In this document: positions 162-60,510 of the stretch, piece after piece
Numbering within the stretch: position 1 is the stretch's first letter
How the letters are laid out: each line of letters opens with the position of its first letter
Source: a virus
Reading direction: 5' to 3' (one strand)
Virus record (IMG/VR): IMGVR_UViG_3300035499_000465
Span: 1-64,000 of that record
Length of the DNA stretch: 64,000 nucleotides
Notes under the pieces: model-generated
Databases searched by the model: none
The model's input: only the letters and a program-made list of their open reading frames with translations
Told to the model about the DNA's origin: nothing
Translations under genes and position numbers: made by a program

Positions 162-190
162 TTGATTTTTATAAAATAATATGATATAAT
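162..190 (+). promoter_or_regulatory. conserved phage promoter copy (TTGATT-N17-TATAAT, extended -10)
   Basis: cttaATTGATTTTTATAAAataatATGATATAATATTTATATAAG. Confidence 0.6.
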
Positions 191-374
191 ATTTATATAA
201 GAAATGATAAAGTAAACTTATATATTTGTCGACGAGGTATATAAGAGAGTTCCCGCCAAGGAGAAATGGTGCTTGTATCGCCAAGCAATAAACAAGACCC
301 AAGTTCGCGAGAAAAATACCGATAAAATAGATTTGGGCGGTAGTGAAGAAGGAACAAAATCATTTTCTTATTTT

Positions 375-446
375 GCCCGGTTAGTTTAATGGATAGAACG
401 TGGCGCTACGGACGCTAAGACAGGGGTTCGACTCCCTTATCGGGTG
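375..446 (+). tRNA. tRNA-Arg (anticodon ACG)
   Basis: Cloverleaf found by eye. Acceptor GCCCGGT/ATCGGGT. D-stem GTTT/GAAC. Anticodon stem TGGCG/CGCTA with loop CTACGGA. T-loop TTCGACT. Confidence 0.7.
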
Positions 447-456
447 TTTTAAAAAT

Positions 457-485
457 TTGATTTTTTTAAAAATTTTTGATATAAT
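457..485 (+). promoter_or_regulatory. conserved promoter copy
   Basis: TTGATT-N17-TATAAT. Drives element copy 1 and tRNA-Ile. Confidence 0.55.
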
Positions 486-506
486 AAATATATAGAATAT
501 AAGAAA

Positions 507-617
507 AAGACTCATACAGCAATTAAATTTTTATTAAAAGTAAGTTTAATTGATGAAGAAAATAAGAAATAAAATTCTTTTGTTGTTATCAATGACAAAT
601 AGAATTTGGAGAGTCTT
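507..617 (+). ncRNA. stem-enclosed inter-tRNA element, copy 1 (closing stem AAGACTC/GAGTCTT; motif ATACAGCAAT)
   Basis: A 7-bp stem brackets an AT-rich interior. The conserved A[TC]ACAGCAAAT motif follows the 5' stem strand directly. The element begins right at the predicted start site of promoter 457-485. Confidence 0.4.
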
Positions 618-57103: not shown

Positions 57104-57125
57104 TCCTCTTCCAAAAGGAGGTATA

Positions 57126-57683
57126 ATGTATAAGATTATTGCAATAATTGGAAAAGCGGGGTCCGGTAAAGATACAATTTTGCAAAAAGTATTAGAGAAA
57201 GATTGTACTTTACATGAGATTGTTAGCTGTACTACAAGACCACCAAGAGAAGGTGAGATAGATGGTGTTAATTATTTCTTTTTAGATCCAGAAACTTTTG
57301 GAGATAAAGTTCTAAAAGGAGAAATGTTAGAAGCGACATGCTTTAATGATTGGTTCTATGGAACAGGTTTTGAATCATTAAGATCCGATATTTGGAATAT
57401 TGGAGTCTTTAATCCAGCTGGAATAGAGTCTTTACTACATAATAAAAATGTTGATGTACATGTATTTTATGTACAAGCTTCAGATAAGACAAGAATTTTG
57501 CGCCAGCTCAATAGAGAATCTGATCCAGATGTTAACGAAATAATCAGACGTTTTAGAGCTGATATGCTTGATTTTGATGGAGAGGAATTAGATTTTAATT
57601 ATAAGGATATTATAAATGAAACTGAATCTGATTTAAATTCTGGAGTTGAAAAAATTCTTAAACTTGTCCAAGAAGACGCATAA
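57126..57683 (+). CDS. P-loop nucleotide kinase (dNMP kinase-like)
   Basis: IGKAGSGKDT. RBS AAAGGAGG upstream of the ATG at 57126. Confidence 0.5.
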   Translation: MYKIIAIIGKAGSGKDTILQKVLEKDCTLHEIVSCTTRPPREGEIDGVNYFFLDPETFGDKVLKGEMLEATCFNDWFYGTGFESLRSDIWNIGVFNPAGIESLLHNKNVDVHVFYVQASDKTRILRQLNRESDPDVNEIIRRFRADMLDFDGEELDFNYKDIINETESDLNSGVEKILKLVQEDA

Positions 57684-57772
57684 AGGGCAAAATGAGATAA
57701 TAAAATAATAACAAACTCTAAATTTAGTGTAGGCCCCTATGGACTATAACTAGATTTAGACGGAGGGATTAA

Positions 57773-60013
57773 ATGTTAAATATCATAAAAAGAGATGGTA
57801 CTTCAGTACCTTTTGATAAACAAAAAATTATTAATGCAGTAAATAGTGCCATGATAGAAGTTGATGGAACTTTATATGAGACTGATACTGCTGAAGATAT
57901 TGCGGAAGATATTCAAATTGCTCTGCAAGATATGAGTAAAATAAAAAAAGATTTAGCTGCTGTAGATGTTGAAAAAATTCAAGATATGGTTGAAGATTTC
58001 TTAATGCGCTCTGAACGTAGAGATGTAGCAAAAGCTTATATTCGTTATCGTTATAAGAGAGAAGCTGCAAGAAATCATAACGATGAATTTATTAAAGCTA
58101 TTAGTGAAAAATTAACCGCAAGTAATGTTCAGAATCAAAATGCTAATGTTGATGAACATTCTTTTGGAGGTCGTATGGGTGAAGCTAATAGTGTAATGAC
58201 AAAAGACTATGCGCTAAATTTCATTGTTTCTAAAAAAGCAAGGGAGAATCACTTAAATAATGAAATCTATATACATGATCTTGATAGTTACGCTGTCGGC
58301 ATGCATAATTGCCTCTCTATTCCTTTTGATGATCTGTTGGCGAACGGATTTAATACGAGACAAACAGATGTGCGTCCCGCTAATAGCGTTAACACTGCTT
58401 TCCAGCTTGTGGCTGTTATTTTCCAGTTGCAGTCTTTACAGCAATTTGGTGGGGTTAGTGCTACTCATCTTGACTGGACTATGGTACCTTACGTAAGAAA
58501 AAGCTTTAGAAAGCATTATTTAGATGGAGTAGAATGGATAGCTGATATTTGTTTACACCAAGATATACCGGATGATACATCTATTGTAGATGATAATATT
58601 TATTGTTTAGATAGTGCATCTTATAAATATGCTATGAGTAAAACTGAAAAAGAAATTTATCAAGCTGTTGAAGGTATGTACCATAATTTAAATACTCTTC
58701 AATCACGTTCTGGCAATCAGCTTCCATTTACATCAATTAATTATGGTACTTGCTCTATTCCAGAAGGAAGAATGATCACTAAGGCTTTACTAGAAGTATC
58801 TATTGAGGGTATTGGTAAACTTCATAAAACTTCAATTTTTCCATGTGGAATTTTTCAGTGTATGAAAGGTGTTAATAGACAACCAGGAGATCCAAATTAT
58901 GACCTATTCCAATTAGCTTTAAAATCAACTGCGCAAAGACTTTATCCAAATTATGCGAATGTTGATTGGAGTGGTAATGAAGGATATGATATAAATGACC
59001 CATGTACTTATTTCTCAACAATGGGATGCAGAACAGCCAATGGTTGGGATGTTAATGGTCTGGGTCAGAAAAAAGATGGACGTGGAAATATTTGTCCTGT
59101 AACAATTATTATGCCTACATTAGCGATGGAAGCAAAGGAACATATAGACCATGATTACATGTATCCAGGATCTATTAAATATGTTGATGAATTTTTATTA
59201 CTTCTTGATAAAAAAATACATGAAGCAAAAGATATGTTGATTGAAAGATTTGATTGGATTTGTTCTCAATCTGCGGATTCTGCTAAATTTATGTATGAGA
59301 ATGGAGTAATGGCAGGATATGTTCCAGAAGAAGGAATTAGATCAGCCCTTAAGCATGGTACTTTAGCTATTGGGCAAATTGGGTTAGCTGAAACTCTCCA
59401 GATTCTTATTGGTAAAGATCATACTACAAAAGAAGGCATGGAGTTAGCTAAACAGATTGAACAATTATTTAAAACTAGATGTGCTGAATTTAAAGAAGAA
59501 TATAAATTAAACTTTGGAGTTTATTATACTCCGGCTGAGAATTTATGTTATACTTCTTTAAAGAAATTCAAAGATAAATATGGAGAAATTCCTAATGTAT
59601 CAGATAAAGAATTTTTCACAAACTCAATTCATGTTCCGGTATGGAAAAAAATGAGTCCTTTTGATAAAATTGATATTGAATCACAGCTTACTGGTTATAG
59701 TTCTGCGGGATGTATTACTTATATAGAGCTTGATTGTGGAATTAAAAATAATCTTGAAGGATTAGAACAAGTAGTTAATTATGCTATGGATCATGATATT
59801 CCATACTTTGCGGTCAATGTGCCTAATGATACTTGCCTTGATTGTGGATACTGCGATGAATTTAATGATACTTGCCCAGTTTGCGGAAGTCATCATATTC
59901 AGCAGTTACGTCGTGTAACCGGTTATTTAACTGGTAATTATACAACAGCTTTTAACCTAGGTAAGCAAGACGAAGTGCATCATAGAGTTAAGCATGGAGG
60001 TTACTTAGAATGA
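57773..60013 (+). CDS. nrdD: anaerobic ribonucleoside-triphosphate reductase
   Basis: N-terminal ATP-cone. C-terminal glycyl-radical motif RRVTGYL. CxxC...CxxC zinc ribbon. Confidence 0.9.
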   Translation: MLNIIKRDGTSVPFDKQKIINAVNSAMIEVDGTLYETDTAEDIAEDIQIALQDMSKIKKDLAAVDVEKIQDMVEDFLMRSERRDVAKAYIRYRYKREAARNHNDEFIKAISEKLTASNVQNQNANVDEHSFGGRMGEANSVMTKDYALNFIVSKKARENHLNNEIYIHDLDSYAVGMHNCLSIPFDDLLANGFNTRQTDVRPANSVNTAFQLVAVIFQLQSLQQFGGVSATHLDWTMVPYVRKSFRKHYLDGVEWIADICLHQDIPDDTSIVDDNIYCLDSASYKYAMSKTEKEIYQAVEGMYHNLNTLQSRSGNQLPFTSINYGTCSIPEGRMITKALLEVSIEGIGKLHKTSIFPCGIFQCMKGVNRQPGDPNYDLFQLALKSTAQRLYPNYANVDWSGNEGYDINDPCTYFSTMGCRTANGWDVNGLGQKKDGRGNICPVTIIMPTLAMEAKEHIDHDYMYPGSIKYVDEFLLLLDKKIHEAKDMLIERFDWICSQSADSAKFMYENGVMAGYVPEEGIRSALKHGTLAIGQIGLAETLQILIGKDHTTKEGMELAKQIEQLFKTRCAEFKEEYKLNFGVYYTPAENLCYTSLKKFKDKYGEIPNVSDKEFFTNSIHVPVWKKMSPFDKIDIESQLTGYSSAGCITYIELDCGIKNNLEGLEQVVNYAMDHDIPYFAVNVPNDTCLDCGYCDEFNDTCPVCGSHHIQQLRRVTGYLTGNYTTAFNLGKQDEVHHRVKHGGYLE

Positions 60014-60492
60014 ATTACGCAGGCATTATAAAAAATGATTTTGCCGCTGCTCCTGGAGTTTCTGTTTCATTCTTTACTCAAGGTTGTCCTCATAGATGTC
60101 CGGGGTGTCATAACCCCGAGACATGGGACTTTGATGGTGGAAAAGAATTTACTCCAGAAACAATTCAAGAGATTGTTAATGCTTTAACGGCAAATGGAAT
60201 AAAACGAAATTTATGTATTATGGGAGGAGAGCCTCTCTGTCCAGAAAATCAATTACTGACTTTACTTGTAGTTAATTCTATCAAAGAAAAATTACCAAAT
60301 GTGAAGATCTACCTATGGACAGGATACACTTTGGAAAATTTAAAAGAAAGTAATTTTCCAAAAGTAAAAAGTATTTTAGATAATATTGATGCTCTAATTG
60401 ATGGTCCTTATATTGAATCTTTAAGAGATACGACTTTATTTTTAAGAGGTTCTAGTAATCAGAACATTTATTATGCACCTTTTGACTTTTAA
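60010..60492 (+). CDS. nrdG: anaerobic RNR activating enzyme (radical SAM)
   Basis: CPHRCPGC motif. Overlaps the nrdD stop. Confidence 0.85.
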   Translation: MNYAGIIKNDFAAAPGVSVSFFTQGCPHRCPGCHNPETWDFDGGKEFTPETIQEIVNALTANGIKRNLCIMGGEPLCPENQLLTLLVVNSIKEKLPNVKIYLWTGYTLENLKESNFPKVKSILDNIDALIDGPYIESLRDTTLFLRGSSNQNIYYAPFDF

Positions 60493-60510
60493 CATATTTT
60501 TTGATATAAT
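60482..60510 (+). promoter_or_regulatory. promoter variant (TTGACT-N17-TATAAT)
   Basis: TTGACTTTTAACATATTTTTTGATATAATATATTTAAAATAAG. Overlaps the nrdG stop. Confidence 0.55.

Follow-up and report, generated by a model that had tools for sequence, protein, structure and literature searches.

Twenty-four near-identical promoters, probably of the host sigma-A type, in the presumed early/middle gene block of a large uncultured gut or rumen phage

The first 64,000 nucleotides of the IMG/VR virus record IMGVR_UViG_3300035499_000465 (referred to here as the window) carry 24 plus-strand copies of a single, strongly conserved promoter element, the -35 hexamers of which start at positions ranging from 162 to 60482. 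Overall, the sequence architecture of the copies, their position and orientation, their conservation in relatives and their restriction to one gene class make it very probable that they represent the early and middle promoters of a large virulent phage that infects an anaerobic Firmicute of the gut or rumen, and that they are read by the RNA polymerase of the host with its sigma-A factor. A previous inspection of the letters alone (the sequence-only reading) had proposed a sigma70-type promoter, and this proposal is supported at the sequence level by the hexamers, the 17-nt spacing, the TRTG/TGn motif, the strand, the position, the conservation of the site upstream of the DNA polymerase gene dnaE and the restriction to one class of genes.

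Architecture of the promoter family

The copies were collected with a regular expression (TTG-N3-N16-18-TATAAT) and subsequently with an iterated scan based on a 40-column position-weight matrix, and they conform to the consensus TTGAYW(TTT)-A/T spacer-(TGn)TATAAT-ATWTWTATAAR. TATAAT, TTG and a spacer of exactly 17 nt are present in all 24 copies and TTGA in 23 of them. The -35 hexamer, which agrees with TTGACA at four to six of its six positions, is TTGATT in 19 copies, TTGACA in two, and TTGACT, TTGCTT and TTGATA in one copy each; the extended -10 motif TGn is found in 14 of the 24. The sequence-only reading had counted about 21 copies from position 162 onward, with the 17-nt spacer in only 19 of them. 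The range and the remaining description of the motif were correct, but the number was an undercount and the supposed exceptions in spacing do not exist. A split-matrix scan for other spacings and degenerate hexamers, which allowed spacers of 15 to 19 nt, recovered no added copies.

The probability that chance or the low complexity of an A/T-rich genome accounts for the family is negligible. The genome has a G+C content of 31%, and loose sigma-70-like matches indeed occur at the level of shuffled sequences (98 to 102 found versus 93 to 106 expected), but the strict family behaves differently, with 10 matches versus 0.05 expected in a shuffle test with a 21-mer and none of 20 Markov-simulated sequences attaining the 12-bit threshold. 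The copies score between 22.5 and 46.9 bits, and the best other plus-strand site of the window reaches 6.4 bits, so that a gap from 22 down to 6 bits separates the family from the background. A de novo repeat search, which is independent of the matrix, returned the promoter element as the dominant direct-repeat family, and the earlier reader was right that it does not resemble a CRISPR repeat. Finally, all 24 copies are located on the coding strand and between genes, and a few overlap only the last codons of the upstream open reading frame (ORF). Of the 37 plus-strand gaps of at least 30 nt between listed genes, 20 are filled by copies, among them most gaps above about 60 nt. The predicted +1, an A located 7 nt after the -10 hexamer, mostly lies 15 to 45 nt before an ATG that bears a Shine-Dalgarno sequence, or upstream of tRNAs (copies at 162, 457, 2371 and 4900). 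The copies, the intrinsic terminators in their vicinity and one additional promoter are listed below in the order of the window, with the strand in parentheses.

Copy 1, 162..201 (+): 45.7 bits, TTGATT-17-TATAAT with TGn and the box ATTTATATAAG; 16 nt past tRNA-Arg(tct), driving a spacer of about 170 nt and tRNA-Arg(acg)
Copy 2, 457..496 (+): 41.0 bits; 10 nt past tRNA-Arg(acg), before tRNA-Ile and an AAA ATPase gene
Copy 3, 2371..2410 (+): 39.9 bits, without TGn; before a tRNA-Gln/Gln/Asp run
Copy 4, 3963..4002 (+): 43.9 bits; before a small ORF (4005-4373) and tRNA-Ser
Copy 5, 4815..4854 (+): 46.1 bits, no mismatches; first member of a tandem pair, followed only by a 50-nt A-rich leader
Copy 6, 4900..4939 (+): 44.0 bits; second member of the tandem pair, predicted start 25 nt before tRNA-Leu (4960-5041)
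Plain divergent promoter, 7601..7629 (-): TTGACA-17-TATAAT; back-to-back with copy 7, serving a class V aminotransferase gene
Copy 7, 7631..7670 (+): 46.9 bits; before ORF 7693-8019
Copy 8, 8016..8055 (+): 42.8 bits; before a DUF2828/DUF7788 gene
Intrinsic terminator, 9651..9682 (+): 14-bp stem and T7, 23 nt before copy 9
Copy 9, 9706..9745 (+): 44.9 bits; before a major-vault-protein-like gene (9782-12226)
Intrinsic terminator, 12233..12261 (+): T-tract continuing into the -35 region of copy 10
Copy 10, 12265..12304 (+): 41.5 bits; before a small ORF and a Thg1-like gene
Intrinsic terminator, 13748..13775 (+): the final 3 nt of the stem are the TTG of the copy 11 -35 hexamer, and the T-run past the -35 hexamer is its U-tract
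Copy 11, 13773..13812 (+): 46.3 bits; before a phosphohydrolase-like ORF (13829-14293)
Intrinsic terminator, 16225..16262 (+): overlapping the -35 hexamer of copy 12
Copy 12, 16260..16299 (+): 41.4 bits; the closest relative has a different ORFan on the other side (ORFan swap)
Copy 13, 17960..17999 (+): 38.4 bits; before an RNA-ligase-like gene (18031-19389)
Intrinsic terminator, 21571..21600 (+): abutting copy 14, with the tail TTTGATTTTT
Copy 14, 21602..21641 (+): 41.3 bits
Copy 15, 23120..23159 (+): 45.2 bits; before a polynucleotide kinase, phosphoesterase and flotillin unit
Intrinsic terminator, 26237..26260 (+): 81 nt before copy 16
Copy 16, 26342..26381 (+): 30.1 bits, TTGCTT, with TGn; before a PhoH and lysin-like unit
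Intrinsic terminator, 30535..30566 (+): 33 nt before copy 17
Copy 17, 30600..30639 (+): 24.8 bits; before gyrB with a 167-nt leader, the sole copy with the start triplet at 8 nt
Intrinsic terminator, 35804..35830 (+): abutting copy 18
Copy 18, 35832..35871 (+): 41.8 bits; before the NAD-dependent DNA ligase gene
Copy 19, 37846..37885 (+): 22.5 bits, TTGACA; overlapping the 3' end of the ligase gene
Copy 20, 38094..38133 (+): 32.4 bits, TTGACA; 248 nt past copy 19
Copy 21, 40568..40607 (+): 38.0 bits
Intrinsic terminator, 43185..43208 (+): abutting copy 22
Copy 22, 43210..43249 (+): 45.2 bits; before a DnaB helicase, primase and RecJ unit
Copy 23, 53144..53183 (+): 31.3 bits, TTGATA; before the DnaE polymerase gene, in a position kept in relatives
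Copy 24, 60482..60521 (+): 34.0 bits, TTGACT; overlapping the end of nrdG

At 4815-4820 and 8016-8021, the TGA within the -35 hexamer TTGATT doubles as the stop codon for the ORF that lies upstream (4519-4818 and 7693-8019, respectively), which is an extreme packing of coding and regulatory signals. The tandem arrangement of the copies at 4815 and 4900 without a gene between them, which had been noticed before, is confirmed; the tRNA-Leu shortly past the second copy had been missed. The only minus-strand gene of the block (6491-7576) encodes a class V aminotransferase or cysteine-desulfurase-like protein in a patch of negative GC skew. Its promoter, which reads from 7629 to 7601, is devoid of the T-run, the A-run and the downstream box of the family, and a bidirectional terminator is located at 6459-6490. 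The aminotransferase gene looks like an independently acquired, moron-like unit.

The presence or absence of TGn is not distributed evenly along the genome. Copies with the motif cluster at 0 to 8 kb and 37 to 60 kb and those without it at 9.7 to 36 kb, which corresponds to 7 runs versus 12.7 expected (z of about -2.4) and may reflect two regulatory subclasses or the local history of copying. The region upstream of the -35 hexamer is weakly A-rich and contains no clear UP element. A palindrome around the -10 hexamer is present only in copies lacking TGn, and no consistent dyad symmetry of the operator type was seen on inspection. Matrix "hits" on the minus strand were considered as further copies and rejected; they are mirror images arising from the palindromic ATATTATATAATAT core.

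Start region and proposed recognition by the polymerase

Conservation of the element does not end with the hexamers. The spacer contributes 11.5 bits and the 11 columns after the -10 hexamer 8.4 bits relative to the intergenic background, whereas the simulated value for these downstream columns was 0.95 +/- 0.24, with a maximum of 1.96 in 2000 simulations. The conserved downstream box that had been described from the sequence is hence real. A YRY or YRR triplet is centered 7 nt after the -10 hexamer in 22 of the 24 copies, compared to none at 6 nt and one at 8 nt, and the 21 nt after this triplet consist of 60% A, 20% G and 3% C. The same layout was observed in 267 further distinct copies from IMG/VR relatives, a set from which those matching the search pattern had been removed: the predicted position -1 is a pyrimidine in 94% and the predicted position +1 a purine in 99% of them, TG is present in 60%, and their consensus after the -10 hexamer reads A-T-W-T-A-Y-R-T-A-A, with T-A-A at +2 to +4 kept at 66 to 90%. 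The box was also considered as an independent element, e.g., a late promoter, but this was rejected, as it is not enriched outside the promoter copies. ATWTATAKAA occurs 13 times in the window, 6 times within promoter copies and 7 times elsewhere, compared to 5.45 expected by chance.

These features have counterparts in ordinary bacterial promoters. In a survey of 49 bacteria (Kuo et al. 2025; PMC12641261), a Y-1 R+1 Y+2 "start" element worked best 7 to 8 nt after the -10 hexamer, and the spacer began with a T-rich tract by the -35 hexamer, continued through a low-signal region into an A/T tract and closed with the extended -10 motif. According to the same survey, the discriminator is A/T- or A/G-rich in Terrabacteria and the initial transcribed region is AG-rich in Firmicutes. 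The box thus appears to match generic Firmicute features, namely, an A/T discriminator, a start triplet and a purine-rich leader, and the sequence-only interpretation as an initiating or discriminator region is supported by this match and by the start triplet. The binding site of a phage factor, which had been offered as an alternative, is not needed to account for the box.

The following course of events would be consistent with this architecture. TTGAYW would serve as the -35 hexamer contacted by sigma region 4. The strict 17-bp spacer, with a T-run by the -35 hexamer, an A-run and then T(A/T)TGn, would provide the Gram-positive -16 or extended -10 element, and TATAAT and ATWTW(T) would act as the -10 hexamer and an A/T-rich discriminator, respectively. 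The T-A-T (Y-1 R+1 Y+2) start element would set initiation at the A 7 nt after the -10 hexamer, and the transcript would open with a C-poor leader of 80% purines that leads into the Shine-Dalgarno sequence. With all optimal elements stacked, the promoters would be expected to be very strong and to out-compete those of the host right after infection. Together with about 10 intrinsic terminators, they would divide the 64-kb rightward block into approximately 20 short, insulated units spanning tRNAs, RNA repair, gyrase, ligase, replication and nucleotide metabolism.

The T-run, the A-run and the ATWTWTATAAR box might instead be the site of a phage regulator or of a sigma-remodeling factor, or the promoters might be read by a sigma factor or an RNA polymerase of the phage itself. 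Such elements are known as targets of T4 Alt/AsiA and of gp67 of phage G1, and the extent of conservation in the spacer and downstream of the -10 hexamer, the T-A-A at +2 to +4 across the clade and the TGn clusters, which could mark two regulatory subclasses, are in accordance with this explanation. Furthermore, all matches to the exact motif with 28 specified bases lie on large viral contigs or in metagenome bins, the longest of the latter being on contigs of about 150 kb that resemble mis-binned phages, and none lies in an isolate genome. Nevertheless, this explanation is improbable. Each conserved block maps to a generic sigma-70/sigma-A feature, the symmetry expected of an operator is lacking on inspection, and the box alone is not above chance. 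In the relatives selected by their DnaE polymerase, the box is weaker and the TG of the -16 motif stronger, which looks like a trade among RNA polymerase contacts. No gene for a sigma factor, an anti-sigma factor or an RNA polymerase was recognized among about 70 ORFs of the window in comparisons with Pfam and PHROGs.

A related proposal, to which we assign a very small probability, treats the near-invariant start region (ATWTW, T-A-T and TAA) as a class-wide tag that is read by a phage factor or by sigma. It is retained at this level because of the uniformity of T-A-A at +2 to +4, the presence of a second -10-like hexamer (TATAAR at -1 to +5) and the clustering of TGn. If it were true, all early transcripts would start with (A/G)UAA(G/A), followed by a C-free purine leader. 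TATAAR could then pause sigma-A in a promoter-proximal position for the loading of an antiterminator that carries transcription past the numerous terminators. Another possibility would be that the shared 5' end labels phage RNA as "self" for the unusually large toolkit of 5'- and 3'-end RNA repair (Thg1-like enzyme, polynucleotide kinase, RNA ligase and phosphoesterases). The clusters with and without TGn would in this case represent two temporal subclasses.

Recognition by the sigma-A polymerase of the host is, in comparison, the very probable explanation, but the following points weigh against it. The +2 to +4 positions and the spacer's T-run and A-run show greater uniformity than a generic promoter model would require, and an added phage-specific constraint on them is possible. 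The labels of the bins containing the motif, which even include Treponema, are too varied for a comparison with the promoters of the host itself. The search for sigma factor and RNA polymerase genes took in about 100 kb of a genome of roughly 175 kb. Finally, a lysin-like gene (28471-30159) lies inside the motif-bearing block, which is accordingly not purely "early" in function.

Gene class, relatives and gene content

The restriction of the element to one class of genes becomes apparent at the strand switch at about 63.2 kb, where a convergent minus-strand block begins (63224-64000 in the window). As seen in the closest relative, a 175,638-bp contig with about 90 to 97% nucleotide identity to the window, this block contains a holin gene, a weak Hoc-like match and ORFs of 643, 1407 and 2516 amino acids, the large ones of which are presumed to be structural. 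Its 13.5 kb contain no copy of the motif, and 361 kb of such convergent loci from 17 contigs contain only one orthologous site of at least 18 bits. In contrast, 24 copies are present in the 64-kb window and 9 in L157, a 12.7-kb locus of the closest relative that reaches about 10 kb upstream of the window. Because it is absent from the convergent block and dense in the window, the motif is concluded to be the promoter of the non-structural (early/middle) gene class, and late genes must use another signal. The restriction to the tRNA, RNA-repair and replication block refers to about 100 of roughly 175 kb of this genome, and the early/middle timing of its genes is a prediction from gene content. 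The intergenic regions of the convergent block share strings such as AAAATTTAAGAAAGGA and AGATAGAAAGGAG after terminators in several relatives, and these strings may be a late-gene signal.

Conservation of individual sites was assessed for the promoter upstream of DnaE. By matrix scan, the large majority of low-GC loci selected by DnaE carry the element on their gene strand, and the promoter is kept in position in relatives with about 50 to 99% protein identity of DnaE. These sites retain TTGAYW, the 17-nt spacing, the A-run, TATGn and TATAAT, whereas the flanks are unalignable and the other spacer positions differ, which speaks for purifying selection on function and against a recent duplication. 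The TATG of the -16 motif is even stronger in these relatives (1.1 and 1.6 bits) than in the window, and their -35 hexamers are mixed (TTGACT, TTGACA and TTGATT), compared to the predominance of TTGATT in the window.

The 28-base motif occurs in more than 118 IMG/VR stretches, almost all of them on contigs of 100 to 200 kb. Among 185,579 GTDB species genomes, it was found in 32 stretches, all in metagenome bins, and in no isolate genome. The labels of these bins are inconsistent (Lachnospiraceae, Bacilli, Erysipelotrichaceae, Clostridium, "Mollicutes" and Treponema), most of them referring to gut or rumen Bacillota, and some of the motif-bearing GTDB contigs (147 to 164 kb) are evidently mis-binned phage genomes. 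With respect to known phages, a megablast search with 20 kb of the window against 50,697 phage records (INPHARED) gave no nucleotide match, and only distant protein matches to known isolates were obtained, e.g., about 40% identity between DnaB and proteins from Enterococcus and SPbeta-type phages. The DnaE polymerase has relatives in 40 IMG/VR loci, many on contigs of 120 to 197 kb. From the contigs of the relatives and the distant matches to isolates, it follows that the window belongs to a large uncultured phage (about 175 kb) of animal gut or rumen samples.

The window has a steadily positive GC skew, and nearly all of its genes are encoded on the plus strand. Its 5' part contains 11 to 12 tRNA genes, which are followed by a block of RNA-repair genes and oddities with a Thg1-like gene, an RNA ligase, a polynucleotide kinase, several phosphoesterases, an RNase T-like exonuclease, a DUF2828/DUF7788 protein, a protein with major-vault-protein domains and a flotillin. 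Genes for PhoH, a lysin-like protein, GyrB and GyrA, RNase H, the NAD-dependent ligase, DnaB, primase and RecJ are located further 3', together with those for an SF1 helicase, the DnaE-type polymerase, guanylate kinase, NrdD/NrdG, dUTPase and RuvC.

The DUF2828/DUF7788 protein (504 amino acids) and the vault-like protein (814 amino acids, with Major Vault Protein shoulder and repeat domains; E = 3e-21) are encoded by adjacent genes (8132-12226), each with a promoter copy of its own, and such a pair beside a large RNA-repair block is unusual in a phage. The region 12498-24684 holds a dense set for RNA-end repair and modification, which comprises a Thg1-like 3'-5' polymerase, an RlaP-like nucleotidyltransferase, several metallophosphoesterases, the RNase T-like exonuclease, the RNA ligase, a tRNA amidotransferase-like protein and the polynucleotide kinase. 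In combination with the 11 to 12 tRNAs, this set suggests a counter-defense against tRNA-cleaving systems of the host. Rfam searches of the tRNA and promoter region, one of them permissive, returned tRNAs only. The transcribed spacer of about 170 nt between copy 1 and tRNA-Arg(acg) (197-373), which is richer in G+C, is kept in L157 and folds moderately better than shuffled sequences (z = -2.2); it has no match to an Rfam family and may be an unannotated small RNA. A 124-nt tRNA at 6254-6377, directly before tRNA-Cys, was detected by Rfam (35.7 bits) and not reported by ARAGORN, and it may contain an intron or be otherwise atypical. Finally, gyrB, the primase-like gene and, at two sites, dnaE of the relative with about 90 to 97% identity (loci L112 and L030) are longer by 287, 1039, 320 and 1216 bp, and the extra segments correspond to window positions 32333, 46423, 54563 and 55743. 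The DnaE loci of several other relatives are longer as well (about 5.1 kb versus 3.9 kb), and these segments probably represent introns, inteins or homing endonucleases whose presence varies within the clade.

For an abundant clade of uncultured gut and rumen phages with genomes of 100 to 200 kb, the promoter family provides a ready-made transcription map of approximately 20 units with predicted +1 sites, and the motif is a simple signature that parts the early/middle from the late block. The exact motif may also flag phage contigs that are mis-binned in bacterial metagenome-assembled genomes, as all 32 GTDB matches were located in bins, several of them on contigs of about 150 kb. The TRTG of the -16 element, the A/T discriminator and the AG-rich leader independently point to a Firmicute host. 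Moreover, the 24 natural variants represent a compact set of candidate very strong promoters for synthetic biology in low-GC anaerobes, and they show how far the known sigma-A contacts can be jointly optimized. Early promoters dependent on the host sigma factor are well known from large virulent phages and reveal no new mechanism. As such phages ordinarily capture the host RNA polymerase in this way, the value of the present family lies in annotation rather than in mechanistic novelty.

Terminators, recombination and known systems

A strong hairpin abuts or overlaps the -35 hexamer at six copies (12265, 13773, 16260, 21602, 35832 and 43210). At these six sites, the tail TTTGATTTTT serves both as the U-tract of the preceding terminator and as the T-rich -35 region. 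Terminators are located 23, 33 and 81 nt upstream of the copies at 9706, 30600 and 26342, respectively, and none was found at the other 15. The statement that the promoters are usually stacked on a terminator was consequently overstated, since it holds for six to nine of the 24 copies, but the overlapping design is real where it is present. The terminator hairpins are all unrelated to each other in sequence, which indicates that the repeated unit is the promoter alone.

The composites of terminator and promoter raise the question of whether the copies mainly act as dispersed homologies of about 50 bp, i.e., as mobile regulatory cassettes at which recombination inserts, deletes and swaps ORFans and gene conversion homogenizes the sequences. 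The nearest named precedent is provided by the PeSLs (promoter-early stem-loops) of T4-type phages, intergenic units in which a stem-loop terminator lies beside a strong early promoter of the sigma-70-like type (Arbiol et al. 2010, PMC2839356; Comeau et al. 2014, PMC4122927). The copies are densest in the region of tRNAs and ORFans, with eight within the window's first 8 kb and the nine in L157 already mentioned; an ORFan swap pivots on the copy at 16260; an indel of about 88 nt lies a few nucleotides downstream of the predicted start of the copy at 162; and the tandem pair at 4815 and 4900 resembles a deletion scar. In addition, the lineage of the window seems to have been homogenized to TTGATT (19 of 24), while the relatives are mixed.

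Closer comparison nevertheless makes this function unlikely. Of about 10 indels of at least 80 bp relative to the contig with about 90 to 97% identity, two are located within 100 nt of a copy, which is not significant with about 0.75 expected, and the remaining ones are insertions that fall within gyrB, the primase-like gene, dnaE and further genes. The breakpoint of the swap at 16260 falls into a repeated ribosome-binding-site sequence and not between two promoter copies, and the hairpins are restricted to a third of the copies. Orthologous promoters keep the pattern and not the sequence of the spacer, which argues for selection on function and not for copying. Recombination at the promoter copies is thus possibly a side effect and not their function.

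The interpretation as host-dependent early and middle promoters can be set against several known systems. The early "uber" promoters of T4 combine an UP element, the -35 hexamer, TGn and the -10 hexamer with extra consensus regions beyond the canonical elements (Hinton 2010, PMC2988021). They resemble the family of the window in their many dispersed, near-identical copies, in the match to each element recognized by the host sigma-70 and in their association with genes for tRNAs, nucleotide metabolism and replication; an immediate capture of the host RNA polymerase, as in T4, would be the predicted outcome here. [quoted passage not shown]

The family resembles the PeSLs in having units of promoter and terminator and in their density in regions of small ORFans; an ORFan swap and an apparent deletion scar are also located at copies. 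It differs from them in that a stem-loop accompanies only six to nine of the 24 copies and is not conserved in sequence, that indel junctions are not significantly enriched (one close pair), and that the phage lineage of the window is not T4-like.

The early sigma-A promoters of SPO1 and of the P100-like Listeria phage CKA15 are similar with respect to the -35 hexamer (TTGACTT/TTGAYTT), the ATGn at -16 and a -10 motif that reaches downstream. The early promoters of CKA15 (TTGACTT ... ATGxTATACTTAA) include tandem promoters and promoters at tRNA loci (PMC12282133), and as is predicted for the window, they are specific for early genes, with late genes on a separate motif. The -10 hexamer is a perfect TATAAT in all copies of the window and TATACT in CKA15, and conservation around +1 is stronger in the window. 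The layout also corresponds to that of the generic core promoter of PMC12641261, which has the same order of elements in the spacer, the A/T discriminator, the start triplet at 7 nt and the AG-rich leader. However, these are tendencies over thousands of host promoters in that model, whereas in the family described here they are realized all at once, and almost invariantly, in 24 copies.

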